From: Catajapyx aquilonaris
Taxonomy: Eukaryota
DNA length: 62,830 bases
Direction: 5' to 3'
NCBI GenBank assembly: GCA_000934665.2
Contig: KZ538547.1
Location: 1 to 62,830, forward strand
Shown: piece by piece, positions 6,001 to 41,200 of the stretch
How the letters are laid out: each line of letters opens with the position of its first letter
Numbering within the stretch: the stretch's first letter is position 1
Translations under genes and position numbers: made by a program
Notes under the pieces: generated by a model
Database searches by the model: none
What the model saw: the letters and a program-made list of their open reading frames with translations, nothing else
What the model was told of the DNA's origin: nothing

Positions 6001-9000
6001 ACGCTGCGCTTCAATTTACTCTAACGCCCATATGAAGGTTTAGTTGAGGTATGTTATTAATGTTATTAATAATATGCAGATCTGAGACTGGAATATCTAA
6101 TGAACTGCAATGCTGGAATTCAGATCAGTGCTGCTTGCTGGAACACTCTGTAGTAAGTAACTTTGATGATCTGAAGATGGCATTAAAACGGCCATTAATG
6201 CACTGTAATTTGTCCAATGTGCAAGATAACTTATGAGGTTGAGTACACAAACGGCTGTGCGTTAAAATCTAACTAGCTTCTTACACCTTGTACGATGTGA
6301 CCTAAGCCTACATGTCACATGCGCAGAGTGCACTTAGACCTTCACCAACTTGTCAGTATTCACTGCACAAACTTACAGCACTTTGAAAGCGCTTAGAAGC
6401 ATGAGTAATTATGCAACAAACTTGCTCTATGATACCACTTGAGCAGGTGGGATAACTAAATTAATACCCCAGGCTTAACAATCAGGAGGCTAGACAAGGG
6501 TCTCAGTGCGAACAATGCCTCCAACTATATAGCTCTGGCCAACTTTCGTTCGGGACTGACCCTCAACATGGATTGCGGCTTATCTTTTCCCCCCACTGGC
6601 ACAGAATGAATTAGGAAGAGAGAGCCATATATACACAGAGAATGTAAACCCAACTTCTCTCAGATTTGGGAACTATTGTTTACTTTTGTCGGTTTGTGCA
6701 GTGTACGGTCATATGTAAACTATTCATAACTCGAATATTTGGTTGAAATTATCAAGCTTAAATTTTCCACTCCTTGTTTAAAATGCAGCAAATAATTCAT
6801 GATTACTTTATCAGGTAGATCTAATCTATGACGTATAGACAGCCATGAACCTGTATAAATCGCCACTAGGGTAATGCTCAATATTTAAAAAGGTGTACTG
6901 TACATGAAACGCCACTGTTCACATAACGTTGGAAGGGTGGCCATACAGAGTGGAACAATGCTATGAGGCCTATAGAGCAAGGAATATGGATCGCAGTAGA
7001 GTCACGGGTATGTACAGCAAAGGTGCATCCTGGCTACCTGGGTGGTTGGTGTGCACACCGAGTGTTTCCAAAGTAGGCTCATATCCACATCAGCAATAGA
7101 CTCATTAGTGTAGCAGTGGGTAATATCGTTGGAAATCTCGTTTATCGGTCTGTCCGGTGTTTGATTAGGACTATAGTAAAGGAAGATACCAAAAAACTAT
7201 GGTGCATATCTTTGCTGGTAGAAGAATTTTCTGTAGGTCGATACCCTACTTACGAAAGCGACGTTTCTGGAGTGACATGTATGGCGGAAAACTAAATCTC
7301 CTCAAATATTATGCCCAGGGTGCATATAGAACGCCAGCCATAGCCCAGGCGCATATTGCTTACACACTGACAAAAATTCAGACAAAAAATAATTCTCAAC
7401 TCTCATTCCACAGAATTTCTAACTTGCTCTTTCGCAAAAAAAAATTAACAAGTGTTTAAGCCAGTTAATGATTCCCTTATTTCTCATTATGTAATTATTT
7501 AGGCGCTACGTACAATATTGCGACTCCTGCCCTTTATCTCATAATGAAAACTAACATGATTATAATTAATTGTCCACCGAAGGCCGAAGCGCGATATCAT
7601 CAGGTCCCCAGATTAGTTTCTCCACCAGTAATACGGGGCCAGAGACCAGCTCATTACAGGTGCTAAGCTGTTGACCCCCTTTCCACAACATGAGCAATTA
7701 CCATCATCATAAAAATACATACAGAGCCAATTGAATTTGTCGTGTCCTTACTAATATGAAAACACTAAACTTGTGTTTACAATGATTTAATTGTTATTAT
7801 TAATGAAACACACAGTATCTGGTGTAGCGTCTCTAGGCGTACGTAGTTGTCACACTCCTACCCACAGGTGTTCGCTCCAGTTAATCTTGCAAGTGACAGT
7901 CGCAGCACAATATGGAGGTTGTCATGTGCAGAGTATAATGCAAGGCTTGCGCTTAACTAGTCCTCTAGCTAAATTACATTACGCTTTTACCTTTGTAGGA
8001 CTTATCTAATGGTAGTCCCTCTGTTCGCTACATTACTGCACAAGCTGTAAACTTAATGTAATTAAAAGTTTTTTCTCAGTAATCCACACTGTGGAATTCT
8101 GCTCATCTAAGTACACTATGTTACATATGGGATACGGCCCAAATATGACAAGTGTCAATGTGTCATACCTATAATATGCTGGGAACGCTATTTATTTCCC
8201 TGATCTCTACATTTTTTTTTCATTTAATAAAATTATGTATAATGTTAATATTTCATAATCCGGATTCAGAAGTAGGGCACGTCGACCCCCACACTGTACC
8301 TCAAAATGTAAATCCCCACCTCCAGCAGCAATGTTCCCCCAAAACTCATATGGTCACCCCGGTTAAGCCGGACGACTCGAGTTGTCCCATAAAAATGTCC
8401 CGGGAATATAATTTGGCCTTGGGAGTCAGCCCACTCCGCCAGGCCTGCTGGTCCAGAGGATGTATATCAGCCGGAATGGCTTTCGGCCAAACCACCAACT
8501 ACACTCCAAGATGGTACAAACCTTCCAAAAAAAAATTAGGACAGCAGTGTCTACTCTTCCTAAAAGATGGCGGATCCAGCACTCCTCTCAAAAAAATACT
8601 GATCTCGCCCCCNCCCCCCCGAAAAAGTATCGGTAAAAATGAAGTGAGGATGGAATATCGCTAGTTCCTGGCACGTGGCCCTGAGTTTTTTTTTCAGAGG
8701 TCCTACTTTCCAGCTCATTACGAGCACGGATTCAAACCGATATTAATTTGGTCACGGGCCAAAAACCAGAGGCTCTGGCAATTACTCATGCCCAGCCTTC
8801 GGCACGTTGAGTTTCCCCCTCCTGATGTGGCCGATTACAATCACAAATTAGCAATCCGAACCATTCATCTAGGACATTTTCAAAACAGGCCTGCAGTCTT
8901 CAGCACTATCGTAAAAACAATTTTTTTTTTTCGGAAAAAAAAAATGCATGGGGAGGTATTGTCACGTAGCCATATTAGCTAGATTTACAAGCTAGTGTTG

Positions 9001-10754
9001 GATGGATTGCCAGCTGCCAGATGAAACAAGGACTAGGCAAAATGGTATTGACATAGACGCCTTTTGAGCTTGGCCGCTCGATGAAGAGGCCTCACAATTT
9101 TTTATTGGTGTCGATACCACCACAGGGGTAGCCATTGAATTATTCTGCTGACCGTAAAATGGGTCACCTCGCACCAGTGGTTTAATCATGTGGGTCGTAC
9201 GCTATATCCGATTTTTGTCAAAGTGCAATTATCCCTTGCATTGTGCTGGCTCTTTGGTACAGGGGTTTGTTCTTTGTAGGCTACATTTTAAAATTAACTA
9301 TTAAAAATGGTTACCTTAAAAGCAGCTAACATTCTTGATCACATGATGTCAATGTCCGGTGGTGTGCAGTGCCCTGCAGGTTTCATTCCTGTATAGAATA
9401 GTGAGACGGCAATTAACAATGGTGTAGTTACAAAGCGTGAAAAGATAAACTATAGATTATTATTGTGTTATCCGCCAGTGGCGGTGCGCAAACCTGTATA
9501 AATGATTGCATATTAGGCGTACAATAATGGGCGCAAATGAGAACAGGGAATTGAACGTAATGATTTCAAACTGTAATTATCAATTAGGGCTTACATGGTG
9601 AGAGCCAGGACTGGAATTTTTAACAGTTTGTAGACGAAATGACTATCGGCGGTTCATTGTACGCCATCAAGACTACTGGGCACAAAATTGGGACGTGACT
9701 GCATCCAAATGCATGGAGGCAGCTAGTGGCATCATTCTTCGGCGATGTAGATGATGCAGCAGACCTCAGATGTGGAAGACCACTAATCACTGTCACCTAG
9801 ACAGGAAGAGTGTTGTGTCCTGTGATGACAAGTTTGCTGATTCAAGTTTTGCTATTTATCAAGCAAGACATCGCGACATTAATTTTACTCGATCAATGGA
9901 ATATAACTTTCATTTTAAAAATTATGTGTCCAGAATCATAAGGCGTACACTGTAAGGTTGACAGAGAATAAATAATAAACACTACCAAAATTGGAGTGAT
10001 GTCATATAAAAATTCTCTATCCGTATGTTTTTTACCTGCAATATGAGTTCATTATTACGAGTATTATTCGCACACTGATAATATTAACACTTATAATAAT
10101 TGAAATCTAAATAGTAATTTCAGCTTTCCCCTTCAAGCAACCATATTAGAATAATAGGGTTATTTATTCATTTATGCAAACAATGCACTCTAAGATCCAA
10201 CAAGTTTTGGACACTTGTGCATTCTAAAACACCTCGTTTTTGACTCTGATGCGAGTAAACAAATTTCCCCGGGGATCAAGGAAAATAAATATGGGGAAGT
10301 TACACCATCCTTTTATGCAACTATGAGTACGTATAAGAAAAAATGAAGTTCATAAACATATTGAACGTACCTTAATGCATGTGATGGTACGCATTAAAGC
10401 TTATAGTGTTTTTAAAAAATCTTTGACATGAAATTCACTTGGTTTGACACTCCTTTTGTAACCTGCTGAAGGGCCCAATAATGAGGAGATAATACTAGAC
10501 TAGCCTAGAAATGGTTCAATGCATACACACCCATTGTTGTCAACATGCTAACACAGATACCTGTGCCTGTAACTCTGTAAGTATTAAATCCCATTATACT
10601 CGAATATGACCCTAATATTCTGAAAGATAGAAAATGGGGCCCATATATCACCCACCTCACAGTATTAAAAATTAATCCTGCTTAATCCATGGTAATAAGT
10701 AGAACGGATCCGGATAGATAAACTTGGATGAACGGACACCGATTCCTCCTGTAT

Positions 10755-10760
10755 TTTATT
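10755..10760 (-). promoter_or_regulatory. Candidate polyadenylation signal (AATAAA) of K2P paralog 1
   Basis: tttatt on + strand, ~250 nt past the second in-frame stop at 11011, where the sequence becomes AT-rich. Confidence 0.4.
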
Positions 10761-11511
10761 GATGCCTACTGTAGGCCTACAGCATGGGAAGAAAAAAAAT
10801 CCGACTTATTGCTGGTCCCCCCGAGTTTTCTTTAGTTGTTGGGAACACTCGTCGTCGTCGGGGAAGGCTGAATAGTAGGAAGTCAGAGAGTTGAAGTGGG
10901 GGAAGTGGAAACAAAACACATTCACACACCCACACCCACGCGTGGCACACACTGCCTGCTTCTGCTGCACCTGTGACAAGGTCAAGTTCACCGGCAGTCA
11001 ACTCACATGGTCACATGAACACGTCTTCCACCGCGGCCTTTCGGGTCATGGCGGCGGAGGTGTCGTCTTCAAAGGTCACCATCTTGGACCGGGACACTCC
11101 GCCACTAGAGGCAGTCGCGGCGTCTGAGTCCTGCCTCCTGAGGACGCCCCGGGTGGTGGCGACTGGAACCGTGTCGCTGACCCCGGACAGGTGGAAGTCG
11201 CTGACGCTGCGGGGGACAAAGTACTCGACGGGTTCCATTGGACGGCGTCTAGACGGCGACTGGACGCGCCCACCCGGTGTCGGAGCGGCTGCGACGCTTA
11301 TGCCGACGATGCTGCCACCGACGGCGTTGGCCCGCTGCCTCCTGGGGAGGGTGTGGTGAGCGGTGGCTGACGTCGCGTTAGGAGGGGCGCACGCCGCTGA
11401 TGCTGATGGTGTGGCTGCTGGGATGGCCTGTGATGCTGCTGGGTAAGGAGGGTGCTGATGCTGGTGGTGGTGATGGTGGTGTTGGTGTTGGTGACCCCGC
11501 TGTGCCTGGCG

Positions 11512-14500
11512 TCAGGACCCACCAGAGTGGCCCGACAACGAGTCCATGTCGTCGTCATAGTCGTCGTCGTCGTCGCCGTCTCCGTCGCCCGTGCGGAACA
11601 TGCCCACGGAGCGACCCAGTCGGCGGGCTACAACTACGATCTCGTCCTGGATCAGGTTGAAGCACATGGCGATCAGGGCCATCCCGACCAGAATGTAGGC
11701 TGCCGACGCCAGGAGGGACGCCTGGGCGGCTGCTGGAGATGACGACGCCAGAGATGGAGGACCGGCTGTCGTCGGATCCCTGTAGCTTGCTCCACGAACA
11801 GTCACTCCTCCTACGTATCAGAAATAAAGACACGTCAAAAGGGATGTCACTTAACTAACGGGATACCGTGCGACAGCTAACACAAATCAGCACTCGAGGA
11901 TATTTTGCAATCCTATTCGCAAGACAAGGAATTACGTAGATACATTGAAACATTGTGATAAGAGAATAACTGTCGGGTACCTCAAACAGTCCAGAAAATG
12001 ATAAATACAAATGTGGGAAAATGTTCATTATTATTTCTGTTTTTACAACAGTGCACTAACTGACTCCATGAAATGCTGTGACAGGAGGGTGTTACATAAT
12101 TCATTTTGAAACCCGCGATGAATAAACCGAAAGAAGCAAAGGTGAAATAAAAAAACAAAAGTGTTTGTTGAGCATTTGCCAAATTTCGCATTTTTGTAAA
12201 TGTAAATTATTCCACGCCGATACTGACACACTAACGAGGTTTCGAATATAAATACCACAATGTTACATTTACGAATACGTATATTAAAATGCAATTGAAA
12301 TTCACACACGTGTCCTCATATCCGAAATTAATATCCACAAAAATTGTCTCACCCTCCTAGGGCCTTATAATATTGTTATTAATTCCTTGAATCTGCACAT
12401 ACAGCAACAATATCGCGACTGATAAATACGATGGTTTGACTGGCCGCCCGATTTACATGCCTATAAAGCCTCCAAATGGATTGCAATAATCAACTGAGCC
12501 TATACTGTCGCGACTCAGTGACGTCACAACCATGTGGAATGGCCTGCCATATAAAAGCAATGCGAATTTTATGCCTCTCAGCGCTCAAAAATGTCGGTCC
12601 GATGACTGGAGATATTTTTAAAGCGCATGCTATTTTTGTTAATTTCAATTAACGGCCATATAAGAGCATAAACGACCTGTAATTGGTGGAATATCCATCC
12701 GCAATTTTCGTTCCCCAATAAATTTCTTATATGCATGTGTCGGGTAGAGTTGAACCTGTCAGTCCATCATGTTACCTGGAACTAGATCTCCGAATCCGAT
12801 GGTTCCGAGGGCCGAAAAGCAGAAAAAGGCCCCCTCCAGCAAGCTCCATCCCTCCAGACGTGCGAATAGACAGGCGCCGCCCAGGATGTACCCAACTATC
12901 AGCAACAGGCACAACCAGATTGGCACCCGGGCCCCAGGGCTGGGACCTATACTTCCTGCGAGAGTCAGCCATGATAGAAACAGTAGTTGAGTCCCGCTGT
13001 CCCGACACGATTGTGAAGGGATTCGGAATGATGGCCCCCGAACGTCCTACTCACCTGGATAGGCTGCTGCTGCAGCTGCTGCTGCAGCCCGGGCAACGTG
13101 CGGGGGCTTGACAGGTCCATCTGGCAGACTGTCGATGGGCCTCTGGGGGACCTTCCCTCGGGCGACATTTCCTCCGCCACCGCTACCGACTCCAGCACGG
13201 CTGCGACAACGGCACAGCCGACCGTAGAAGCGACGGAAGGTGCGGGCCAGGAAGTCCCCGACGGACGAGAGGTACAGGAGCATCAAGGGGATGCCCACCA
13301 GCGCGTACAGGACGGTCACCAGCTTGCCCCAAGTGCTGCGAGGGGTCACACTGCCGTAACCTGCCGGGAAGGGGTAACAGTGATAAGAAGAACTCTGCTG
13401 ATTCCATTAAACCGCACTGCGGGTCCGCGTTCCACACGTTGGGCGCCATTGTAACGTGCCTTACATCAAACACATCCTGTGCCACCCTGTACGAGCAGGT
13501 GGACCTGCCCTAAACTGCTTCACCTTGTACATCAAGAGTGGTAAACTTGTATCGCGACAAGGTTTTCGCCTAATGAGGTCCAGTAAGTCACCGGAACCTC
13601 GCAGTTTGAGGATGTAATCAGCTGCTTTAGTAGGACGGGCGGGTCGGGGAGAGGCCCAGGAAGAGAAGACTCCTCTTTACTATGCGACGCCTGGCTTCCA
13701 TGGAACAACCACACTTCCAGGAAACTGCTCTAATATGCCCTTGTGCAGAGACAAATCCACTTTCACGGAGTTACGAATCCGTTCAGGTCAATTGCCGTGA
13801 GTTAAACTGCTTCCCCTTTTGCCCTGGCACCTTACGGCTTTGCCAACTCGCGGGTTTTCGTAATATCTGACTGCCCAATGCGAAATTGCTTTCCAGTTTC
13901 GCCCGGCTCGTAGAATGGCACTGTAAAGAGGTTAATCTCAGCCAGGGCGGCATTTTCAGAATGTGTGATATTGGCTCGCTGCTTACAGTTCCGTTTACAC
14001 TGCCGTTTCAGGCACGGTCTTCATCAAATTAAGTAAGGTTATGAACTTTGGAGAAAGGGTACGAACAGTACAAGTTATGCAGTCTGGCAGCGATAAATGA
14101 TGCACGAAGGCATCCGTCATTCCGTGCAGTCTTGAGCCGCGCCATTGGCCGAATTCTTTCAACTGCAGTGCCTCTTAAGGGGAGGAAGGGCGGAAGAGAG
14201 GGAAGGGTGGGTGGGTGGGTGGCCACCATGGCAACGACCCTTCCCATCTTTTCCTGCTTCCTCGTCGTCACCATTGGCAACGGATGCTGCCTGTCACCGA
14301 GATGCCAAGTCCGTACTGGCGATGCACGGCCTCCCCCTTTTGACCGATCGTATATAGGACGCCTCTAGGTATACCCATGCATTCGTAACTAGGACGGAGG
14401 CGACTCGGCTGGGTCAAACGTGTGACATCTCCAGGAGCAGCGCCTGTCACCGGGTCGTTATAGTAGCGATGACCGGTTTTCATGTCCGGCGCATGTAAAC

Positions 14501-16447
14501 AGCCTGGGTAGTGCTGGATAGAGAAACGTATCTATCTACTACGCTGTGCCTGCCAGCCAAGGAAATGAGATTAACTCTTACGTGGCTTTAAACAGGAGAT
14601 TAGGTTGGCTTCGCGACACGAAGGAGCCAACGGCCCGTCTCTCTCTCTCAACTCTGGTCGCCATGACGACCCACCACAGGCGCCATTTTGCAAGGGAGGA
14701 GGGGAGGGATGAGCGACCCTTTGGCTCAGTGTCATGGGATAAGTTGCCATTTGTGCGGCTGAAAACTTCGAGTCCTAAATTGCCAGCGGAATGCAAAGTG
14801 AGGTAGGACTTGGCACCTGAGGGGTATAAGGAGATGTGCTCAGTGCTCTCCTGTTCGTGACCCTGTATATGGGGTCACGCCCAACACACAAGCATCGAGC
14901 AGTTGCAAGTGTTCAAATATCCCCCTACTCTAGAAAATCTGGAGCCAAGTTTTCGCCTAGTTTTAACCACCCAACCGGCGATTAATTACGAACTTTTGCT
15001 ATACAGTGCATTGCCTGGAACCCGAGGAAATAAATTCTCGAGCGAAACTTTCCGCCGTGTCTTTGAAAGAACGTCTGACGAAAACAAGAGAAGAGCAATT
15101 GGTTCTCCGGAACCATCTTTATTTCGGGCAGTCGGTCCCACCTGGCAAAACTCGGATGGACGAAAAAAAAAGTCTGAGCGAACTTTGATTGAGTCGCTGG
15201 GTTTGTGTGATGAGGTTGCTGCAGAATTAGAAGAACTTGAGAGATTCGATTCTGGAATCAATCTGTAGCAGGCAAGGGCCTTTCACCCTTATTTGACCTT
15301 GTTAGCGAGGTGGAAAGAATAAGGATGGGGTTGTGCCTTTCGCAGCCAAACGGATCAAATTGATTCACTACTATATGATCATCCTGGTCCAAATTTTGCA
15401 CTGTTTTGCTATCCAATTGCGACCCATCATATTCGTAATCGTGTATCACAATCGTATGCAATTTTTTGCCACACATTTCGTGGCAACAAATGAAATGCGT
15501 GGTTACAACCCCGCAAAGTTGGATTACTCACCGCAGCGATTGGAAATCCATTTATCTGGGGTCACTGAGAGATTTTCGATACAAATAATTTAGCTCTCCA
15601 GGGACAAGTGGTCTGCAACATCGACTCAAACAGGAATAACAAGCAAGTGCATTTGGGTATGGTCTACTATTACATCCAATCGAATAGTGTGGGCGAAGAC
15701 TCACCTATGGTGGTGATGAGCGTAAGAGAGTAGAGTAGGGAAGATGCAAAAGTCCAGTGATGCGACGGTTGAGGGCTGGTGCCCCCAACTCCTTGGATCC
15801 CAGTCCTCATGGCCCTGACGACGGACTCCTGGAAGCGCACCACCTCCTGCGTGGCCAGACGCGTCCAGTTTCGCTCGTACAGGATGTTCAGCCCCTCTGT
15901 GATGCTCCAGAGGCGCTCCACGGTGCGGTTCCTCAGCTGCGTCACATGCTCGGCAAAGGTACCGGTCGCCGCACCGTTGGACGTGGTCGCAGCAACGGCT
16001 GCTCCAGTGCCACGACCCCCAGAACCACTAGATTTTCCTTCGGAAGAGGAGGTGCTGCTGCCACCCGCGCCCACCACGCTCCCTACGACCACCTTCTCCA
16101 GCGACCCGCCGCTGTTAGACTCTTCTCCGCCGCCACCGATGCCACCGACGCTGCCCCCGCCGCCTTCCAACGCCAGGAACGCCAGTCCACCCAGCACCGT
16201 ATAAGCCACCACCTGAAATCATGTGTGTTGTCCTCATTCGCACCGGTGTCGCCCATACCATACTAACCAGGGCGCAAACACCGAGGTTTCCAAAGGCGGC
16301 GGAGGCGCACCGACGGCAGCAGCTGTGACAACGTCGTTCGCCAGGCGACGATGTTGAGCCCGACGACGACGGTGGTGGCTGTCGACCTCCCCTGCAGGTG
16401 GCAGCGTAGTCGGGGAAGGCCAGCGACGGCGGGCGCCGCGGGTCCAT
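11512..16447 (-). CDS. Two-pore-domain potassium channel (K2P, TWiK-like) paralog 1, ~490 aa; possible readthrough to 11011
   Basis: Exons 16447-16268, 16212-15705, 13360-13055, 12955-12776, 11810-11512; all GT-AG and frame-consistent. P1 'LYSLTLITTIG|YGSVTP', TM2 'GKLVTVLYALVGIPLMLLYL', P2 'FCFSALGTIGFGDLVPG', TM4 'YILVGMALIAMCFNLIQ'. Confidence 0.93.
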
Positions 16448-19400
16448 CTCCTGACGTCACGGGGTCCTGCGTCTCGTCTCCATACCTGCAATGGTCACAA
16501 AATTCATGAGAGGAAAACTGACAGTAATATTTGTCACCGTGTAATCCTGTCTCGCTGCTCTACTTTAATAAACAGCCTGAATGAATTCCATGATAAATCT
16601 CGTGTAAGCCTAGCAGTCCGGGCGTTGAATTTTCACGTTTACAGGATTAACTGTTGATTAATATCCGCTTTGATGTATCGAAGCACGGAGGACGGTTGCG
16701 AATAAATGACAAGGAATGTTTTTGCCTGAGAGAACCTAAAGCAAGGGAGAAGTCCGTCACACTCAATTACTTTTTTCACGACCGTAAGTCTCCAGTCCAA
16801 AACTTATCATACGTAACATCATTACTTGTAAATTAGGAAATAACGACACTGGAGGGCCCGTGCTTTCATTTTTGAGTAATTTCACAGGCGAGCGCTTTGA
16901 ATGCAGCTGTTTTCAATGTTCGCTGGAGGATATGCACTACTCTATAAATAGAGCAGTTTTTTTCTCAGTCTAATGAAAAATTCAAAGGAATAGTTTTTGC
17001 CGCTAATTGGACCGAGACAAACGCAACAACGTGGAAATAATAACTGTAAATGATTAAAATAGATGGTGAGGCAACATTAGTCATTATTGATTTGATATTA
17101 ATAGCAACTCGGTGAAAGCAAAAGTTTGAACATGACCGAAACCCAAACCCGCTTATTATTGAAACTACAGTTGCTCTTGAAAATGAATAATCAAAGTTTT
17201 CATACGCCTAAAGCAATCCTTAACAAAAACTGGGAGATAACAACAGATAAATTATACCTACTGTCTTAATTACCCCCAAGCACTTCCCAGCTTAGTCGTT
17301 GAAGGTCTAGGTTACAGTATACGCTAAAAGGTTCCGCTTACTTGCATATTTATCACCCCAGCTTGAAACTGAGCTTAATCCCACCAAGTTTTACTGTGCC
17401 CAGATTTAAAAAGGAAATTTAACTAGAACCCTCCAATAAAACCAGACACTCTCTGCAGCTGCGTGCAATCCCCCGGTCACTGCCCGGTATTCCCCTCCCA
17501 GCATGGACAGCGACATTTTAAATCCCAAGATCATGAAATGTTTCACCCATCACTTTTTCCCCTGAAATCCCATGTCCAGGATGTCCAGAGAGAACTCATT
17601 TCCCCGGACTGTCGGCGTCTCGTTAATCCGACGTGGTTGGAATAAGCTGGATGGTTAATCCGACTCATTTCTCGCAGCCGCCGCTTCGTCAATCAAAATA
17701 ATTGCCTCCGGGACAACAGAGCCAGCGTGTCATCCGTCAAACCCATCTGCGCCAACGTCGACTCAGCACCCCCAGATATGTACACTTTAACCTACAAACG
17801 TGCCTCTTTCCACTGGGGTTAATTGATGCTCTTTTCATTCACCATCCAAGCAGGATTGTCAAACATGTAGGATTCAACCCCCACCCAAAAAAAAATGAGG
17901 GGGTTGACAATCATGTCTGACAGTGTGTGACGTCCTGTTGACACACTGACGCCGGAAAGAGAGTTTAGGTTTCGCTTCCCAAACGCAATCAGCCCCAAGG
18001 TATATGCAGTGTACGGCTCAACTCACTTACAAAGCGAAACATTGGTCTGGATACTGGACACACTCGCATCATGAAATACCAGGGAAATTACGGTTCGATT
18101 GGAGTTTGAACAGATTATGGGAAAGGGTCTGGCAAATAACAAAACAAGTGCTGCAAATGCAGGTGACAATAATATGCACTATTATGCAAGCAAACAACTG
18201 GCGCGGGAACTATATACAAGGCCCAAATTGCCCAGTTCACTACCTGATGGGACTGGATCGCTCTGAATTAACCATCGGTAGCATTCCGGGAGGTGCACTA
18301 CACTACAGGGTGGCCCTTATACAGGGTGCCCTCAAAATTCTCGAGAGGCATTGCCGCAACCACATCACGGGTACTACCGTGGTAGGGGTAGATTATTCAC
18401 AGGTGACATGGCTATGTTTCACTAGAGACGCCAAGTCGAGGGTCTCTGATTGGCCGGCCTTTGTTGGGCGGAGAAAATGGCGCCCTCGCAGCTGGAATGG
18501 GTGGCTGGGGAGCCGTCCGCTTCAAGAAGACCTTCCAAGACGACACTTAATTGTTTTATGTTCCCGAACCGGATTGCTGAACTTGCGGAGGGAGGTCGGA
18601 ACGGGGGATGGAAACCCTTGCATCAATATGACTTGCTCATACATAATTTACGGACCTATCTTTAGAATCTGTATCGCCATTTCTGGATGGGTTGGGAAAA
18701 CCATGGGCCATATTGCAGCAGCCTTGATTCTAAACATGTTAACAACTTTTGATTAAACGTGGGGTGTGCAGAATTAACCAACGATTCGTATGCAGGGTGT
18801 GTCTTTCATAGGCACGGTCTGTCAATAGCTTATATCTATGCCTAATCATTGAGGCAGATGCTTCCAGGCTATAGGTTGCGCTCTATTCCTTCAACTTCTA
18901 TGTAAGGAGACAACTAAAACACCCACATAATGACAACATAAGCTTACAAACATAAGCTACACTCAAAATTAATTGTGGAGAGTAAAAGTAGCAGCCCCAT
19001 TAGGCCATGATTACATATATAGGTAGTCACGTTTTGTTCAAAAATGCTGAATGTGTACTGCCGCCTAAGCTTTCATAAAGTAGATTACGTCCCATGCCCC
19101 CGAGTAATTAATCTCGTAATTTTTGCACAAACTGCACTGGCATAAAAAGCAGTGTTTTTTGCAAGGTGTTCCTTTCTCTCTCACAGGCCTACTTTTTTTT
19201 CAAACGGTTTTGTGCCAGGCCGGAAAGTGCGTTTGGTATTTCTTTGATCCAAGCTTCACGGGTGAACCGGGTCACTTGGGACATATCCCAACAGCTCCAT
19301 TGCTCAAGCGTGATAACGTCACATTTTCTCCTAGACAGTGACATCATCACGCTTGAACAAACAGAACGGGCTGTTGGATTGCCTCAGTCGCCTGTGAGTC

Positions 19401-24602: not shown

Positions 24603-27234
24603 TCACGATTCTTCCTCGGCTTTTCCGCCACATCCGCACCTCCGTCCGCAAGCCCGCACCTTGCTAACCACCTGTTCTTGCATCAGGTTAAAGCACATGG
24701 CTATCAGTGCCATGCCCAGCATAAGGTATATGGAGCAGAAGACAAAACTTATCTCGATCGAATCCTTGGAGTGGAAGTTGGATCCAGGCACCAGGTCACC
24801 GAACCCTATGGTGCTAAGGCTGATGAAACAAAAGTATGATCCGTCCAGGACGTCCCAGCTGGTCTCCCAAAGTCTGAACATTTCGGCACCGCCGTACACA
24901 AACGAAGCCATCAATCCTAGACACAAGGAAATGGGTACTGTCACATTCTGAGTGTCGTCCTCTTCCTCCTCTTCTCCGCCACCTCCTTCACCTTCTTCTA
25001 CAGTACCTTCTTCCCAAGCTTCCCATACCTGCAACGTACCATTAAAGCACTTTATTTACTGTACTTTCAGCTTATGCAAGCGGAAAGTCCAGCACTCAAG
25101 ACGGCTCCTACTTTCTTTTGTGAAAAGTCTGACTTGTTTGGGAGCTAGTAAATAGGGTGCAACGTTTTCTGGTGCAGTGCAGCAAAATAATGCCCAGAAA
25201 GTTACCTCTCCTGTAGTTGCCTTGTCGCCAACTTCTTTGGCATCAGGCGGTGGCCCCGTTGGGGGAGGCAGACGACGTCGACGCCACCGACATTGACAGC
25301 AACGAGCGTACATCCATTTAAAGGAGGTCGCCAAAACGTCACCGACGTTGGACATGTACAGCAAAAAGAGAGGCATCCCAGCGATGCCGTACAGAATCGT
25401 CACCACCTTTCCCCAAGCAGTTCTTGGAGTAATGTTGCCATAACCTGCAATGTTTAAATACACGACCATCATCTTTGTCGTCTGTTACTCTACCATAAGC
25501 CTTAGCCTGCTCAAAGAAGCTTGTCTTCCTATTGATATATTTTTCCGCTGCTCTGGAGGATTAAGGTTTCGGGAAAAGAAACGGCTGTGGCCTATTTTGT
25601 GAGGAAATGTCATACGCCTTGACTTTCCAGGGAAAGAAACATATATTTTAGCCCAGTTACATACCGCTGATTATAATATGCAAATATTTAGCCATGGCCT
25701 GTAGTGTTGGGCACAAATTGTGAACTCAAACTCATTAGATTTTTAAGCAACTTCCAGCCGCTAGTAAACAGTTACTCCTGCGTGAAATCAATCCTAACAA
25801 GTAACAACCTAGTAAATCTCGTTCCCCCACTACCCGGAAGACCTAATCCGGGCTAATTATTTACTATTGTCAACACTAATCCCAGCTAATTATTTTTCCC
25901 CTCTGGCCCGGATGACGTAAGCTGATGATCGAGCCCTCGTTCAGAGACTAAGTATAATTAATTACTTTATAAACCAGTGCAAATCCTCTTAACCTCTCAG
26001 GATCGCTAATGCAATCTTATCTCTCTTTTGAGAGAGACTCTAGGAAAAAATAGTTTCTCCCCACAAGCTGTATAGCAGAGACCCTCGCCACAAAGTATGG
26101 ATTTGCCCCTAGACGAGAGATCTCCCTTTAATGAGGTTCCAGCACTGGATTTCCCAGCCAGGTCCCTCCCCCTAGAGACTATTTATCCACATATCACCAT
26201 TTCGCGCCAGGTTTACCCAGGGCTAGACTTTGCTATCGAGGACAATCCCTCATATTGTAACTAAGGCTCGTTGCAGCTGGGAAGTGCCAAATTGTACACA
26301 AAAAAGCAGCATCTGGGCCATAAAAAGGCTTGGCTCCTATGAGACTCTGGGGAGGAGCTGATAACAAAAAATGTAGTTAACGCCAGAGCAGGGGCAATGC
26401 AGTTGCACGCGCCTGTTTCGTCAGGCCTGGTTTTTAAGGTGTGCTTCATATTCAATGTGTTTTAGAATAATGGAGCTGTCGTTGACATTGTGGTCTGTAG
26501 GGTGCGGCAGCTGCAGCTTGACGCCCTGATTGTGACAAAGGAGGGGCCAAGTTCAGCTCAGTCGAGGGAAAGCACTCTCAAAATCAGGCGACGGCTATTT
26601 TACATTTTTAAAATGAAAAAAAAAACTTTTTTCATTTTAAAAATGTAAAATAATCCAGGGGCAACAAAACAGCTAAGTAAAAGTGAGCGGATAACAAAAA
26701 TAACAAAATAACAAGAAAGAGGATATTAAATTTACCAATGGTGGTAATGACAGTGAGCGAGTAGAGAAATGCAGCGCTGATTGGCCACGTCCCGTTGGAC
26801 TCCATGTCACCTTCAATGATGTGATCTTGGGCCTCTTTGACCACAGTGTAGCTATAATTTTTGACCTCCTCCTCAGCCGTTTCAGTCCAATTTTGTTTTT
26901 CGAACACATTAACGTCCATTGTTAACTGCCACAGGATGTCGATGACTTGCTGTCTGCGGAGATCCACCCTCCCTTTTGCCAGTCGAGCCTCGTCAGCAGC
27001 CTCCCTGGATGCCACGTCTTCTATGGCTTGGAACATGAATGCACCTGCGATGGTGTAGCCGACCACTAGCACACACACGCCCACGTGGCTAAACAGGAAG
27101 GCGGTCAGTGCACGGGCACAGTCCTTCAAACGACGCCAGCACAAACGCTCCTCTTCCTCGTCGTCTGAGTACTCTTCTTCCCAGGTCTCCTCTTCTACGT
27201 AGTAGGGGTCTCTTCTGTGGGAAGACCGGTCCAT
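24603..27234 (-). CDS. Two-pore-domain potassium channel (K2P, TWiK-like) paralog 2, ~387 aa
   Basis: Exons 27234-26736, 25444-25206, 25028-24603 (GT-AG, in frame). TM1 'FLFSHVGVCVLVVGY', P1 'YSLTVITTIG|YGNITP', P2 'FISLSTIGFGDLVPG', TM4 'YLMLGMALIAMCFNLMQE'. Confidence 0.93.
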
Positions 27235-29829
27235 CTTCTGTCAACATTAGGTGCAGAGCTTGGTTCAGCTTGGTGGTCTTTTCAGGCCTGAAAGGAAGTT
27301 CATGGTGTTGTATAGAGCACAAGTAAGGATGAGTCACTCTAACTCAGTCAATGACCTATCAGAAATATATCCGGCTCAGCGACTCTGTAGAAGGTGCATC
27401 TAGCGTTCCAAAACTACAGGAGAAAATCCTTTCACCAATGGAACCGGAACGAAGTACTTCATGTGGAATCCCCGCTTTCAGGAAAATCTCAAACCAACTA
27501 CTCGTTAGCGACGATGAAGAAATATCCCTAAAGCATGAGAATGTAAGCAATCTACGCATTCCGCAGCCCTCCTTCATTCGGTCATACGATGGAAACCCTC
27601 TTACAGTCAAGTCATGACAGAACGAACAAGATGAAAGCATTGTTGCATATTCACATAACAGCAATGCATCTTGAAACAGTCGGTAGGCAGATTGTATCCA
27701 AACTTCCAGAATATCTGATTTTGAAACGATTCGGGTGACAACCTGGGGATAGTTTTGCGAACTCTTGTACTGAGGCATATTAAATTCGTATCCAGAATTA
27801 TTTACGGAAGTAAGATAAAATAATTCTACCAAACTGCCGCTGTATACTGTACAGCTGCACAACAGTCTTTGTGAATATCATGAATACACATGAACTGCAC
27901 GATGCCGTTCGTTCCGCGCTATTCTTTAAAAATCAGCAAAATATCGTATATCCATCACAGCAGTCAAAAATGAAGACAAACTCAGGTATACACGACAGCT
28001 TAAGAAAAATTGCTTGCTCTAGCACTGTCACCACTTTGAGATGCCACTGCACTTGTAATATTGGTTGATTTATTGCTATTCTACCCCACTTGGAAGGGGC
28101 GGCCGCAATATAACACAATCCCCAACCTTCTTCGCTTCTTTGCACAATACTCTACAGTATCACTAGACAGCCCATAATAACACAGTGTCACAATAAAATA
28201 CTGTAATCGCAAGACAACCGCCTTTTCTCCTTAAAAAAATCCAACACCCAGGCAACTAGGCCACATTTGGCCCGCCTCTCAAGTCCCCAGCCCAATTATT
28301 CCCCACCCCTCAACTTCTCAAACGCATCTATTGCAAAATGCAGCAAGAGAGACGTCAAGGGTGCTGGGTCGTGCATGTGGGAAGAGGCAACTCTATGGAT
28401 GTGGCCCTGTAAAAGCCCATTTGCGGGCGCATTAGAGAGGAAAAGCCTTGGCGGCCATATCTTTTTTTGCACCCCCTTTTTCTCCCCCTTTTTCTCCCCC
28501 TTTTTCACCCCCTTTTGCCAGCATCTCTCCCTTTTGCAGTGTGATAGGTCGAGGAAGGAGGCAGCGCAATCCTTCTCAATTCCTCCGGACTTACCCGGAA
28601 AATCCTTGCAGCTGTGGTTGAGGCCTGGAAGAAAACATAACCGTTCTGGCAGCGAGTGTATATAGTGTGTGCTGCGTAGGAGGGATAGGCCCAAGTTGGA
28701 AAGTCTTTGGCAAGCGATGGTGGGAATGGGGCCTCCCCATGTAAGAGGCGGAAATTGAAGCGGACCCCTCGGCCATCACATCTGGCTCTATGTTCTCGCT
28801 TGGGTTCAATGGTCCAGATCAACCCAACTGCTTCTCTCCAGCCTCTATTCACGTCCAAAACTTTGTCCAGATGGAAAATAGTGTACCTCGTTACCGTTTC
28901 GACCCCCTCCAAAATGGGGATCTTTACCGCCCTGAAATTTCTCTTTTGTCACCTCAACTCGGCATTTTACAATGTCGTCGGTATGGCCATAGCACGGCGG
29001 GGGTTTATATGGGTCCCCAAAATTTTCATCAAAACGCGTTCAGGAGATTCCCTGGAATATTCCAGCATTTAATTTGTATACGCTTCTTTCTGCTGTACGC
29101 CATTAAAATGACCAACGACCAAATGCTTAATATCTCCAAAGGCTTACTCGTGACCTACTGCTTCCAACACTGAGCGAACCTGCAACGCCAAAACACATCT
29201 AAAAGCACGTCCTCAGGCCCAGTTTACACGGAAAATTTTGACCGTGTAATTCCACTTAGAGCCACTGCCAGTCCTACAAAAAAAAAATCCCGAATTTTCC
29301 CTGAAATTAACGAGCGATTAAAGAGCACGTGAGAGTACTCATATCCGGAGCGTCACACGTTTGAACGAATTTCCTATTGCCCGGCATAGCGGAGCATGCT
29401 TTATCGGCGCAGAGGTCCCAAGTGGCTTTTAAGAGGGTGAAAATGAAGAGTTAATCGTATGAATCAAGTAGGGTGTGTGTGAGTGTATTTGCGAGTTTCT
29501 AGACCAGCAGCGTGCAGAGAGGCGCAGAAGGCCTGGAGCCTGATTAATAATGGAAGTCTTCGGATCGATGCCCGTCTCCTGTCGACCAAAGACTCCGCTC
29601 CAGAACAGAAGGCTCGCAAGTGCCCAAGAAAAAGGCCAGCTAGCCACTAGGAAATTGCATTTTTTGGGGAAAAAAAGGTTCTCTCTACTACTGCCACGGT
29701 TTTCATTTCGTTCCTGCACCACTCGGTTGCGCAAAACTCATGGAGAACAAAGAACAGTCACGTCATATGCGTGCAGGTAAATTCTGTACAAGTAACTTAT
29801 ATGCTCTTGACCGTGTATATTTATAATAA

Positions 29830-35272: not shown

Positions 35273-38200
35273 TCAGTCCTCTTCGTCGTCGCCTCCTCCT
35301 CCCTCGCTTTTGATGATGCCCAGCCTGCGAGCAATTCCTTTCACACTGCTGATCACCTCTTCTTGGACCAAGTTGAAACTCATGGCCAAAAGAGCGATGC
35401 CAAAGAGCAGGTAGAGGGAGCAAAACGCGATGCTCATCTCTTCGGTGTCTGCTCCCTTCCTCGCTGGGACCAAATCTCCGAATCTGAGGAGTAAAAGCAA
35501 TACGTGTACCCTTGACAGTGTGAGTGACGTTTCCAGAAATACTTGCCCAATGGTTGTCAGCGTGATGAAACAAAAATATGCGGAATCCAAATAGTCCCAT
35601 TTCTCCCAAGTGACGAATAACCAGGCGCCACCCAGGATGTAAGCCAGCACCAGAAACACGCATAACCAGATGGGCACAGGCCGATTTCTAGAAAGAATAT
35701 TTAGCTATAATATAAGGTTCTTCAACGTTGGTCATGTCTTATTCCCACTGCTGAACAATTGACAGTTTATACTACTGGAGCTGACAATTTACGCCTTACT
35801 TCTCATGCTCGCCCTCCTCATCATCTTCATCTTCAACGTCGTCGATCACCTCTGGATACTCCGGGTACTCGTCACCCGCATCCCCTTCCCTATCCAGAAG
35901 CTCCTTGTCCCGGTAGTTGAACCTTCCCCTGGCAGAGATCGGAGTTTGCGGTGCCGACACAGACACACTGTCGGAACCCCCACGTGGTCCGCCCCCGACA
36001 CTCTCTGGGTCCCTCCCTCCAGGTCCTTGCCCTCGCTTACGGTGAGGGTACGAGTGTCGATGAGCAATGGGCTGGACTTGCCCAGCACTACTGCTTTGTT
36101 GTCGCGTCAATGTCCCGGCGCTACCACCCCCTCCCGGAGGTTGCAAGGGGAGTCGAAGCTCATCCGGATTCACGACGTACTTGTTAGAAATCACCGGAAC
36201 CTGCGGAACGACATTTGTGAGGGTACACCCAGGATTCGTCGCGGGTAATATGAGATGTGTGACGTAGTACCTTGGCAGCATCAGAGGAACTCCGCATGGG
36301 TGCAGCGTCTGGGGTCTTGGACCTCTGCGACGACCGCTTCGAATTACCCAACCCGGACGTGCCACTCCAGTCTGCTTCTTCAATGTACCTGCTAAATAAA
36401 CCCGACATACATACGATAACAAAACAGCGGCAGTATGGTTGGTGATGTGAAATCTACTTATTGTCTGGATCCGACGACGATCTGGAAATGGCCGAATCAG
36501 AAACGGCCGAGTCCGCCGATCGCTGGGAATGTCGCTGCGATCGCCGAAAGGAAGCCGTTCTTGCCCGGCCGGAAGCGCTCGGGTACCGGTTACTGCAAGT
36601 GGTCAACTTATTATGGCTTAGGTGTTTTTCATCCAAGATAATCTCCGTTTCAGACAATAACATTTCATGTGTGAAATCAGGTCTTTGTAAAATAATATGG
36701 GCGTGCAGTACCTTGATCGAGTCCTGGATCGCCTAGAGCGCCGTCGAGGCTTGCGGGTACAAAAGTAGCAACATATCTTCCAGTAGAAAAATCGAAATGA
36801 ATGCGCCATAGCATCTCCAATGTTGGACAAGCAGAGAAGCATCAGCGGGATGCCCAGAATGGCATAGATTATAGTCACGATCTTGCCCCATGGAGTTTTT
36901 GGAGCAATGTGGCCGTAGCCTACGAGAAAAATAGAAAAATGAATAGTTATTACATCATGAAAAAAAGGATCGTTGCAGTATAATTACTAATCCATCTATC
37001 AGAACATTAATGTGCTCAATTAATTCATATTATTCATAAAAATATTACCGTAAAACCAAGAGCTACTGGTAAAACTTATAAAACTCATGCACTGAAGTCA
37101 CTCTGCCTATTCCCAAGGTTTATAGTCAGTGGAGTCGTGGAGCTCATAACTTTTCACTACCGGTATGCTCATTCCTATCCGTATCATACAAGCTTCAGCA
37201 TCCACGTAAATATCTGCATATAGCTTGTCAATAATTCGTTGGAAAGAAATGCGTCACGTACAGTTCCACGTGATTTGGGCGAATAATATCCACTTGTACA
37301 TTTTCCAACAATCACCATCAAACGATTAGCCTACCGTACTTGATAGCATATAAGACGCACCCCCCATTTCAACAGATCATATTTAGTTTAAAAAAGTTCT
37401 TATAGTATTTTCGCATAAAAGACGCAGGGGGATTTTTTGAGCCATTTTGGAGGGGAAAAGTGCTTCTTATATAATATGCCGTCACATATGGTATTTGCAG
37501 AATATCCTTATTCATGAGCAGGCAGTTCTTATGATAAGCTTTTTTTTTTCATTTCACTCATTCAATACCATCTGCAATTGACAAAGGATCATGAATATAG
37601 AGAAGTTGTTATGCCTCTTTAGAAGCTATATTGCGCAATGCATCTGCATCGACTATGGCTATATTATGAGAACGCATATTGCGAAAATATGTCTCAGAAG
37701 AATAGTATACGTATGCTTGTGTACAGTACTTGAGACTTCATCGGGGACTGCTGCAAGCACTCGGTACACTCATATCTGAGTGGATCATGAAGTACATCGT
37801 GTTATTCTTCCTGGGGCTGGCCGTGCTGGCCCAGGGGCAGACCCCGCAGTTATCCCCGTCTGTGAACTGTTTCATTCATCGGATATTGAAGTTATTGGTG
37901 AGGAGATTTTGTATGTGTATGACAGATGTCGACCTAACACAAGATTCCTTCATTGCCCCGTACAGGGTCTACGCCAAGACGAGTGGATGACTGCAAAGGC
38001 TGTCCTAGTGGCCGGGAGTGACCCCAATGTGAACGGAACTACAACTATCACCCTGCGACAACGGTGCACCGGAGGACCCGTGCTGGTGGAAGGCCGCATT
38101 ACTGGACTAACTCCTGGAGACCACGGTTTCCATATCCACGAGAAGGGTGCCACTAGCAACGGATGCCTGGACGCCGGACCACACTTCAATCCCTATAATG

Positions 38201-41200
38201 TATATCTCCACATCAACAACAAGTATTCAATCACAGGGTGCTAACACTCTCCAAAACGCCCTTTTCAGCGCACTCACGGTTCTCCAACAGACCAGAATCG
38301 ACATGCTGGAGACTTGGGCAACATCGCAGCCGATAACAATGGAGTGGCCAATTTCAGGCGCTGGGATTATCAAATCACTCTGATTCCAGACCAAATCAAC
38401 ACCGTCCGTGAGCGCACCTGCGTGGTACATGAAAAGCCCGATGACCTGGGTAGCGGGGGCAACGAAGAGAGTCTCAAAACAGGAAATGCCGGGAAACGAT
38501 GGGCCTGCGGAATCATCCACGTAACCCACGAATGTTGTAATTAGCATCTTGCTTTCAAAGTCACATGATTCTAATACATTGCTTTATGTCGTGAGATTGC
38601 ATTATGAAGTACACTGTATATGCATTTTGAAAAATAAAGGCACACTTTCTTCATTTTTCTCTCGTTTCTCTCTCCGTTTGTCACGCCTTTGGCGTCTTCT
38701 AATAACAAGATAGCCATATAGTTGCTTTGGCTACTTCCTAATAAACCAAACCAAACCAGAAAATACATATGCGCCAGCTTGTTCGAGTTGCGGTGTATGA
38801 GGAAAAATTATTTCCCAAGTAAAAAGCGTAATGTAGCCTGTGGCAGTAATTCATATGTAACATGACCGAAAACTTATCGTTGCAGTATAAACCTTATTAT
38901 TAACCCATCAAGCAGAAATGCGCGCAATTAGTTCATGTGACTTAACTTATACCAATCTGACCGTGAAGCTAATAAAAGCTCATGCACTGAAGTCACTCGA
39001 CCAATTCTCAAGGTTTATAGTCACGCACTCGTGGCGCTCATAACTTTTCACTATACCGGTAGACTCATTCTTATCCGCGCAGATTCATCCACGTGAATGT
39101 CTGCATAGCTTGTCAATAATTCGTTGGAAAGAAACGTACAGTTCCACATAAAAAGGGCGAATAATCTAGATATACTCCAACAATCACCATCAAACAAATA
39201 CTACGGTAGTATATTTGGAAAATAATCTCATGCAAAAGAGGACTATTTTGCCTGAGGGTGTTCCAAATAATATTATATAGGTCGCTTTAGATATAAGTTA
39301 CTTGTAGGAAATTTCACTCGAGGTAGTTATTTTTTGTGTAGCTTGTTGCTCCCCAATCAAAGTGCCCTATAACTCTATAAGAAAAAATAGAAACTGATGC
39401 ATTCCACCAAGTGGGAATAATTGGGTACTTGGATGGGGCCGCCCTGAACAAACTTAGACAAAAATAATTCCTCGAGCTATATTATCGGATAACTAATCAT
39501 GACCCTATGGAACACCCTGTATATATGCAGACAGGACTTATGTTTAGAATATTATTTGTTGTCACTCCCTCAACGCCGTCTGCAACTGCTAACGGATCAT
39601 TAAAGTAAGAGCATTGAAGTTGAAATAGCCTTCAGTCCTTTACAAACTGTACTGCGCAATGCATCTGCATCGACGTATATCTATGACGCAGTAAATACAT
39701 GTAAATAATAAATAAATATATTGCAGTAGACTGTTACACTTATGTTTGGATTATCGTAGTACAATACAAAAGTGGATGTTTCCTGCGCATCACAGGAGGC
39801 CCTTCAAAATACCGGTAGTTACACAACGTACTGTACATTTCAGGCTTTTGAATATGATACAGTACGAACCATAACAATGTTGACATATGTCACAATTATA
39901 TCACTTTTATTACACAACATAGGTTTCAAAAATACGCCCAATTTAAAACTTCGTGCATGCGTGCACCTGATCACGCCACATGAAATGGATATTTACCAAA
40001 ACTACTGTCATGGTCGAGAGAGAAGGTCAGTAGTTAGCGAAGGTCGAGCCCCAATCTACTCTCGCACTGCAGCTTTTTCCTGCACTAAAAATACTAAAAA
40101 TAACAACAACACTCTGCAATAACCCCATTTTTCGCCATAGTGCAATCGGAATTCACGACGCGACTGGCCCCCTATCTCCACGTCCCGAAATTGTTGTCAT
40201 TGTTCTGCTCGCTTGTTTTCGACCTAATGGTGTGCAACATGTAGTAATCGGGACCATCAGCAGTTCTGTGACGCCAGCCAAGAATGCAAACAACTTTCTA
40301 GCAAGAAAAGCGCGGTTGCCATCATCGGAAGAGAATCGCTATCAGTGGATGAGGACAGTGTCTGTTGCATAATGAACTATGGCAACCTAGTGAGTGAAAG
40401 GTGTGACTAATCACTTGATGCTTCCTCGGGGCCGGTTGTAGGTACTCGGTACAGTCGCAAAGGAGTGGATCATGAAGTGCATCGTATTGTTTTTCCTGGG
40501 GCTGGCAGTGCTGGCCCAGGGGCAGATCCCTCAGCGCCCACACTATGTGTATAGTGGCCCTCAGCAGGTATTTTACTTTCTGGTGAGGGGATTTCTTATT
40601 TGCATGCTCGGGTGTTGTAGTCTTATGTCCTTATAGACTTTGTGGAGGTTGGAGTTGACGTCATGAGTGTAGCCGCACCTACAAGGGTCACCTCTGGGCG
40701 ACATAATTATTGCATTGTGTCAGCACCTTAGAGCTTGCATCTGGTGAATATGGTCAAGCAATGGCTGCTAAACCAGTTGACTTGGTGCATAGCAATTTGC
40801 GACGTAAATTACGAGCATGCATTTTCTAATGCGTTTCTACCTCTGTGTCGTCGAATCCTTCATCAAATCGGTCTCATTACAGGGTCCACGCCAAGACGAG
40901 TGGGTGACCGCAGAGACCGTCCTGGTGGCCGGGAGTGACCCCAATGTGCAAGGAAGAATCACCCTGCGTCAGTTGCGAGCAGGAGGACCCGTGTACCTGT
41001 CAGCCCACATTACCGGACTAAGTCCAGGCCAGCACGGTTTCCATGTCCACGAGAAGGGAGACACCGGTGACGGCTGTGTAGCCGCCGGACCACATTTCAA
41101 TCCTCATAAGGTTAATCCCCACCTCGACAACAATTATTCAGCCACAGGTTGCTAATACTCTCCAAAACTCTCTTTTCAGCGAAACCACGGTGCCCCAACA

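Follow-up and report, generated by a model that had tools for sequence, protein, structure and literature searches.

The relevant passages of Jungreis et al. (2011, 2016) report that, among candidates for stop-codon readthrough, TGA and a C directly 3' of the stop are commoner in the ancient ones, and that the 8-mer CAGCAGCA is enriched. One entry in supplementary file 2 of the 2016 paper is the Drosophila melanogaster gene CG42340, whose transcript CG42340-RC is given a 236-codon extension that begins at a TGA-C first stop and ends at a second stop, TGA, and for which a column of that file also gives a transcript from the 2011 paper. In supplementary file 1 of a 2026 preprint the same gene has a 708-nt extension and a score of 13 (tier 1), with ..ELALVTVAVTPKPS printed before the stop and QRPSADP.. 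after it; according to passages of the preprint that score, out of a maximum of 15, is built from three Ribo-Seq classifiers together with features of conservation and of sequence. Here we describe a gene for a two-pore domain potassium (K2P) channel in the arthropod Catajapyx aquilonaris that has a comparable arrangement. The gene lies on the minus strand of the window, by which we mean the whole stretch of 62,830 nucleotides that was analysed (positions 1 to 62,830 of contig KZ538547.1, assembly GCA_000934665.2). Read on that strand, its last exon runs ...MDSLSGHSGGS, then TGA (11514-11512), then C (11511), and the frame past this first stop is open for 166 codons, up to a TGA at 11013-11011. 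We consider it very probable that the K2P mRNA undergoes programmed stop-codon readthrough, since the tail is conserved in orthologs, the TGA-C and the frame are kept at nine of nine loci from other species, the post-stop DNA of termites appears to be under purifying selection, and the presumed fly ortholog is already catalogued.

A preliminary description of this DNA, made from its letters alone, had proposed that UGA-C readthrough adds a functional tail to the channel, a proposal that the four lines of evidence just named support. The end of the channel reading frame in SGGS-TGA-C and the 166 open codons that follow are as it claimed, and the peptide they encode is the one it quoted. The last exon, the two stops and the extension are made up as follows.

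11515 to 11810, minus strand: last coding exon up to the first stop, encoding the last part of the M3-M4 linker, membrane helix 4 (..YILVGMALIAMCFNLIQDE..), a stretch of acidic residues and the Ser/Gly-rich end ..MDSLSGHSGGS (from the translation).
11511 to 11514, minus strand: first stop, TGA (11514-11512), with the C that follows it (11511) and a Ser codon, TCC, before it (from the sequence).
11353 to 11510, minus strand: low-complexity linker of the extension, about 53 codons, poorly conserved (no sequence match in the alignments of other species, frame kept).
11452 to 11493, minus strand: His/Gln run inside the linker (translation).
11434 to 11441, minus strand: the 8-mer CAGCAGCA, a single copy in the extension, inside the linker (sequence).
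11014 to 11352, minus strand: conserved C-terminal module, 113 codons (HMMER homology and alignments).
11332 to 11352, minus strand: module motif TLPRRQR (translation).
11182 to 11226, minus strand: module motif EYFVPRSVSDFHLSG (translation).
11125 to 11148, minus strand: module motif GVLRRQDS (translation).
11062 to 11085, minus strand: module motif KMVTFEDD (translation).
11014 to 11028, minus strand: C-terminal EDVFM of the module (translation).
11011 to 11013, minus strand: second stop, TGA, then C at 11010 (sequence; G+C and codon-position bias fall after it).
10746 to 11010, minus strand: 3' untranslated region (3'UTR), minimum extent (transcript contig, record 16 of read run X5, described below).

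CG42340 (FBgn0259242, FBtr0299863) is, to judge from sequence, the fly ortholog of the window gene, because the flanks printed in the preprint match K2P models of D. kikkawai and D. serrata (P0070 and P0072) that carry the same tail; the match extends to both sides of a piece that these models skip, and from that point their tails run for 236 and 237 residues. The basis of this orthology is the shared C-terminal module and the same stop place, not a tree. CG42340 shares with the window gene TCC-TGA-C at the first stop and TGA at the second, and the tail motifs of the Drosophila models (..EYFVPRSISEFNLSG.., ..KMVTFEDE.. and an ..IFM end) match those of the window. The two genes differ in the length of the extension, 166 codons in the window against 236 in CG42340, and in the linker, which in the window is His/Gln-rich and unrelated in sequence. 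They differ too in the kind of evidence at hand, which for the fly gene includes ribosome profiling, according to the text of the preprint, whereas for the window gene it comes from sequence. The window gene also shows the hallmarks of readthrough in Pancrustacea, namely a UGA-C first stop, an in-frame second open reading frame (ORF) with a coding signature, an extension that is disordered, and a product that is a neuronal or membrane protein. A literature search for stop-codon readthrough in connection with a potassium channel returned no paper, and one for readthrough together with 'two-pore domain' returned nothing on topic, as judged by title. The supplement of Jungreis et al. (2016), in the files other than file 1, does not contain the names Task6, Task7, CG42594, CG43155, CG34396, CG1688, CG9194, CG10864 and Ork1; the fly K2P table in PMC8020223 omits CG42340; and where papers mention CG42340 in their text, the relevant passages do not describe its product.

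The tail itself is conserved. A HMMER search of the 166 residues against 1.84 billion representative sequences gave 12 matches at E<=1e-3, of which the two strongest have E values of 3.4e-34 and 3.7e-9. The latter half of the tail is covered by 11 of the 12, and in 10 the alignment extends to the last residue of the matched protein. Those that carry names are insect K2P proteins (Ranatra, Spodoptera and Cacopsylla), and further searches found the tail in K2P models of termites, stick insects, lice, thrips, sawflies, wasps, moths, beetles, midges, a sandfly and Drosophila. P0001, the protein of a close relative, is 88-89% identical to the window tail over 82-83 residues. Four motifs are kept in the alignments, one SLPRRK-like, the others EYFVPRSVSEFNL, KMVTFEDD and the C-terminal EDVFM, and the invariant columns read E-Y-F-x-P-R-S-x-S-x-F-x-L, V-T-F-x-D and D-x-F-M. 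The window sequence departs from none of the 16 invariant columns of the tail, nor from any of the 5 that are nearly invariant. Within KMVTF, which we take to fit the RVxF docking pattern of protein phosphatase 1 (PP1), the V, T and F are invariant or nearly so in three alignments, and the last residues, D-V-F-M, are nearly invariant. A Pfam scan assigned the tail to no family. An AlphaFold model of the tail has a mean predicted local distance difference test (pLDDT) score of 56 and no secondary structure, as is expected for a disordered tail.

The stop is conserved together with the tail. Scanning metagenomes with the tail alignment gave 163 pattern matches, 9 of which were confirmed as loci; these 9 amount to 7 distinct sequences in 4 deep lineages. 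Five of the loci are termite-like, two of these having the same translation, one is midge-like, a single wasp- or ant-like species contributes two, and there is one other. At every one of the nine, following the tail frame upstream on contiguous DNA reveals a single stop before the channel body, or its acidic end, is reached, and that stop is TGA-C, the next bases being CAT in 6 loci, CAG in 2 and CGT in 1. At L007/L008 the membrane helix is on a separate exon, and at L009 the last tail motifs lie about 640 bases further on, presumably past an intron. The residue before the stop is always Ser: TCC-TGA-C is common to the window, to eight of the loci (the termite loci, L007/L008 and L009) and, by the preprint's supplement, to CG42340, and L006 has TCA-TGA-C. 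The peptide before the stop in the window is homologous to the ..AMAVVSSxxxS ends at other loci. From the stop to EYFVPRS there are 44, 82 or 101 codons at the loci and 95 in the window, which implies many insertions and deletions, all of them frame-preserving. The finding of the same TGA-C in all other lineages examined indicates that it is ancestral and not a new lesion.

Protein collections point to the same place. Twenty-four uninterrupted ORF calls contain the tail as well as the fourth membrane helix (M4), and all 24 read S-W at the stop place; the residue after the W is H in 13, Q in 6, L in 4 and P in 1. Since 21 of the 24 continue past ..FM with another W, the caller evidently read TGA as Trp, and the DNA of near relatives (L006 and L007) has TGA at the S-W place. 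Of 20 named gene models with both M4 and the tail, none includes the stop place, body and tail being joined by introns. The models P0010, P0017, P0019, P0040, P0054, P0063, P0064, P0070, P0072 and P0075 jump about 10-30 residues around the conserved stop, and such skipped pieces are probably artificial mini-introns, introduced by prediction pipelines to avoid an in-frame TGA.

We also note that a set of Diptera-like ORF calls (P0042, P0045, P0048-P0053, P0055, P0057-P0062 and P0065-P0068) has 20-45 more residues past the tail's own stop, which is read as W. These residues, which show conservation across species, terminate in ..G(D/N)(V/I)IKV, often with another W after that, and a second, nested readthrough may occur in flies and midges. 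In the window a third ORF of 77 codons (10777-11010) holds no motif of the ..G(D/N)(V/I)IKV type, and the termite loci have TAA 6 codons past the second stop.

Termites allow selection on the post-stop DNA to be gauged. The ratio of nonsynonymous to synonymous substitution (dN/dS, Nei-Gojobori), taken over four distinct termite sequences, which are orthologs and not the window's own lineage, is 0.06-0.14 before the stop and 0.14-0.46 past it in frame 0, and 0.88-5.9 in the other two frames; over the first 45 post-stop codons it is 0.05-0.19 in five of six pairs. Past the second stop, ungapped identity drops to 0.35-0.66 in the termite loci. These values argue that the post-stop DNA of termites is under purifying selection as protein, in that frame alone. 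The preliminary description had asked whether orthologs keep both the TGA-C and a downstream ORF under synonymous bias; all nine loci do keep the TGA-C and the ORF, and dN/dS in the termites is low in frame 0. In the window itself, the GC-rich, coding-like composition that had been seen to continue across the stop is borne out: G+C is 0.63-0.70 from 11800 to 11000 and 0.39-0.50 below about 10900, and by codon position it is 0.66/0.53/0.71 in the exon before the stop, 0.68/0.58/0.72 in the tail and 0.58/0.50/0.42 past the second stop. Third-position G+C is thus coding-like up to the second stop, which counts for readthrough. The open frame by itself is only mildly unusual, since 640 of 20,000 mononucleotide shuffles of the 498 bases (3.2%) stay fully open, and it is therefore conservation that carries the case.

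Sequencing reads bear on whether the TGA is real and whether it stays in the message. Five runs cover the stretch, four of them DNA of one sample (possibly the one from which the assembly was made) and the fifth, X5, from another sample and study. X5 is not recorded as RNA and is taken as transcript-derived only from its intron-spanning contig (record 17), which joins 13358 to 15703 across a GT..AG intron and so indicates that X5 holds spliced transcript; X5 depth over introns is 0. The TGA is present without differences in three DNA runs of one sample. A 982-base X5 contig (record 16) spans 10746-11727 with 0 differences and 0 gaps, from which it follows that the TGA is real in a second sample and is kept in mature RNA with nothing spliced out there. 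This transcript extends at least 265 bases past the second stop. Depth in X5 is 6.7 for the contig over the stop and 5.9 for the spliced exon contig; the run has no cover over 11728-11810 and parts of the upstream exons, and no single contig links the last exon to the remainder of the gene. A sense codon in place of the TGA, which the preliminary description had raised as a way in which it could be wrong, was seen in neither DNA nor transcript contigs, and the single transcript contig shows no splice that removes the TGA.

Several observations weigh against readthrough and have to be set beside the alternatives. No stable RNA structure was detected downstream of the stop when compared with shuffles (z 0.28; around the stop z is -1.84). 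The 53 codons right past the stop are of low complexity and unconserved, with openness at chance level: the first 63 codons are open in 8,261 of 20,000 shuffles, and a second frame is open there too. In the linker, dN/dS is 0.91 for the sixth termite pair, a value based on 3 non-synonymous changes and 1 synonymous change. Supplementary file 2 of Jungreis et al. (2016) classes CG42340 as 'Comparison', not 'Ancient', and names no mosquito partner for it, 'ancient' in that catalogue meaning shared by fly and mosquito. The remaining points are those to which alternative splicing could appeal. On that explanation an in-frame intron bearing the TGA would be removed from the last exon to give a long isoform, the unspliced message would give the short one, and the stop would never be passed. 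There is a donor-like CTG/GTGGGT at 11522, to which the preliminary description had already drawn attention, with several in-frame AG sites downstream that could act as acceptors (for example at 11367, 5 codons before TLPRR). All 20 named gene models connect M4 to the tail while skipping the stop place, and for two of them, from Schistocerca (P0041) and Neodiprion (P0040), genuine spliced RNA could be the basis; Cryptotermes has two models, one of which (P0028) ends at the stop while the other (P0015) carries the tail. Contigs drop rare isoforms, so that a rare spliced or edited form could be hidden. We nevertheless regard splicing as improbable. The sole transcript contig is unspliced over 11727-10746 at a depth similar to that of the spliced exon contig, with introns at 0, and the gene's real donors (TAG/GTGAGT, CAG/GTGAGT and CAG/GTAACA) are unlike CTG/GTGGGT, which has no counterpart in seven other loci: in none of these do the 60 codons before the stop include a donor close to consensus (GTRAG or GTRRGT). 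Splicing, moreover, needs no shared frame between the stop and the tail, yet the frame and the single TGA are kept at nine of nine loci with varied linkers and in 24 of 24 ORF calls, and the termite codons directly past the stop evolve synonymously.

The long protein might instead arise by another form of UGA recoding, either selenocysteine (Sec) insertion or adenosine-to-inosine editing of UGA to UGG. The stop is TGA in all 10 DNA sequences (the nine loci and the window) and never TAA or TAG, a strictness that is also typical of Sec codons. We think this explanation very unlikely, however, as Rfam gave no match to a selenocysteine insertion sequence (SECIS) in window positions 8000-12000 at E<=10 or in six loci at E<=1, Cys, the usual replacement of Sec, stands at the stop place in no ORF call, and the TGA is kept in the Hymenoptera-like loci L007/L008 (closest to the Ampulex model P0064), Hymenoptera to our knowledge lacking Sec machinery; with regard to editing, the transcript contig has A, not G, at 11512, though rare variants are dropped from contigs. 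It is hardly credible that the TGA is a nonsense mutation, a polymorphism or an assembly error and the tail a decaying 3'UTR. The Ranatra and Spodoptera gene models do show body and tail as a single protein, and the window linker is of degenerate low complexity, but TGA-C occurs in all other lineages examined and is hence ancestral, the TGA is present in two samples, every invariant or nearly invariant column of the tail is intact in the window, and third-position G+C is that of coding sequence up to the second stop. A recent truncation of the tail is excluded by the conserved stop. To a chance open frame without function in a G+C-rich 3'UTR we give practically no credence: full openness does occur among the shuffles at the frequency given above, and long ORFs are also found on the reverse strand and in another frame, but the tail is homologous to insect K2P C-termini with E values down to 3e-34 and 4e-9.

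The channel that readthrough would extend belongs to the K2P family. Two upstream exons match Pfam Ion_trans_2 with 42.9 and 32.5 bits (cut-off 22.5), there is a weaker match in the first pore exon, and the pore signatures TIG and GFG are present in ORFs, so that each subunit has the two pore domains that define K2P channels. The ortholog P0010 matches PDB K2P chains at E about 2e-22, and its residues 254-285 match 11697-11602 in the last exon (tblastn). Insect orthologs are labelled 'potassium channel subfamily K member 18-like' by their source. As regards vertebrate TASK and TRESK, the likeness is that of the K2P family, resting on the two Ion_trans_2 matches, the PDB chains matched by P0010 and these 'member 18-like' names. 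An acceptor-like TTTATTTCTGATACGTAG lies directly upstream of the last exon, and the exons before it are the following.

12776 to 16218, minus strand: upstream exons of the same K2P gene (spliced joint, donors and Pfam).
Ending at 15703, minus strand: upstream exon with the first pore region (spliced joint from 13358 to 15703).
13055 to 13358, minus strand: upstream exon (spliced joint in X5 record 17).
12776 to 12955, minus strand: upstream exon with the second pore region (about 99 bases at 12956-13054 are skipped in the pieces of X5 record 17).

On the minus strand at 16100-16260 the first coding exon appears to switch frame near the first membrane helix, with ..GNLGVCALV.. in one frame and ..VAYTVLGGLAFLALEGG.. 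in another; a short intron, an insertion or deletion, or an assembly slip is possible there.

The readthrough candidate is the first of four tandem K2P genes on the minus strand of the window, at about 11011-16456, 24603-27240, 35273-37000 and 43494-44170. Paralogs 2 and 3 end shortly past the last helix, in ..GGKAEEES and ..GGGGDDEED. A tblastn search of the window for the tail module found it only at 11014-11352, with nothing better than E 1.3 near the three other paralogs. Between paralogs 3 and 4, on the plus strand at 37780-38244 and 40808-41155, there are two exons resembling Cu/Zn superoxide dismutase (..HGFH(I/V)HEKG..GPHFNP..). A selenoprotein-O-like gene at 52643-53512 on the minus strand ends in ..RVSCSS, with Cys at the place where vertebrate SELENOO presumably has selenocysteine.

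Rfam scans yielded only sub-threshold hairpins resembling microRNAs (miRNAs). One of them, a mir-598-like match on the opposite strand at 11454-11577, scored 29 bits against a gathering score of 69 and was taken as chance. Palindromic hairpins in the termite loci (L001 3410-3508, L002 3862-3971, and L005 1302-1388 and 4113-4252) have matches to several miRNA families on each strand, none of which reaches its gathering score, and look like small inverted-repeat elements in introns or UTRs.

How might readthrough act in this gene? We envisage that most ribosomes would stop at the UGA at 11514-11512 and release a channel subunit with an acidic, Ser-rich stub, and that some would decode the UGA by a near-cognate tRNA and go on through 166 further codons before a second UGA ends translation. 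Such decoding would be favoured by UGA-C, a context prone to leak, and perhaps also by the presence of the conserved Ser codon TCC in the P site. The extension would then be a disordered tail, consisting of the variable linker and a module of short motifs (SLPRRK-like, EYFVPRSVSxF, KMVTFEDD and the C-terminal EDVFM), and one mRNA would give a short and a long subunit under different regulation. Because K2P channels are dimeric, mixed channels with one short and one long subunit would be expected too. K2P channels are regulated via docking motifs for phosphatases and 14-3-3, and the motifs of the tail most likely dock regulators or scaffolds; the hydrophobic C-terminus, which the preliminary description had singled out as a possible PDZ ligand alongside KMVTF as a PP1-docking candidate, could serve as a scaffold ligand. 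The passage of ribosomes through the UGA in this species, the rate at which it would occur and the partners of the motifs are all inferred from sequence comparison. We know of no vertebrate K2P channel that acquires a regulatory tail by readthrough.

The mechanism proposed here is not new. What is new is another gene of the known readthrough class, with unusually deep conservation, and with a functional hypothesis attached to it, that short and long subunits differ by a motif-rich regulatory tail. The published catalogue, in the supplementary file cited, treats the fly gene as one without a mosquito partner and places it outside its ancient class; the same stop is traced here through Diptera-like, Hymenoptera-like, termite, louse-like and bug-like sequences to the window arthropod, with TCC-TGA-C and the tail motifs seen in fly-, midge-, ant-, termite-, louse- and bug-like sequences as well as in the window. 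A potassium leak channel would thereby join those readthrough genes whose conservation can be traced furthest back, and the case suggests that annotation pipelines hide such cases through invented tiny introns around the stop. We advance, as a tentative proposal that may well prove wrong, that this UGA is one of the oldest programmed readthrough sites of animals, fixed before the insect orders diverged and possibly before the split of hexapods and crustaceans. It would have been kept since then because a translational leak, and not splicing, sets the ratio of bare to tail-bearing subunits in a TRESK-like leak channel, with the tail as a strip of docking sites, KMVTF for a phosphatase, SLPRRK and PRSVSxF for kinases or 14-3-3, and the C-terminal DVFM for a scaffold. 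If this is true, then public gene models of the channel are systematically wrong, as all 20 named models skip the stop place, and neuronal excitability would be tunable by anything that modulates the efficiency of translation termination.

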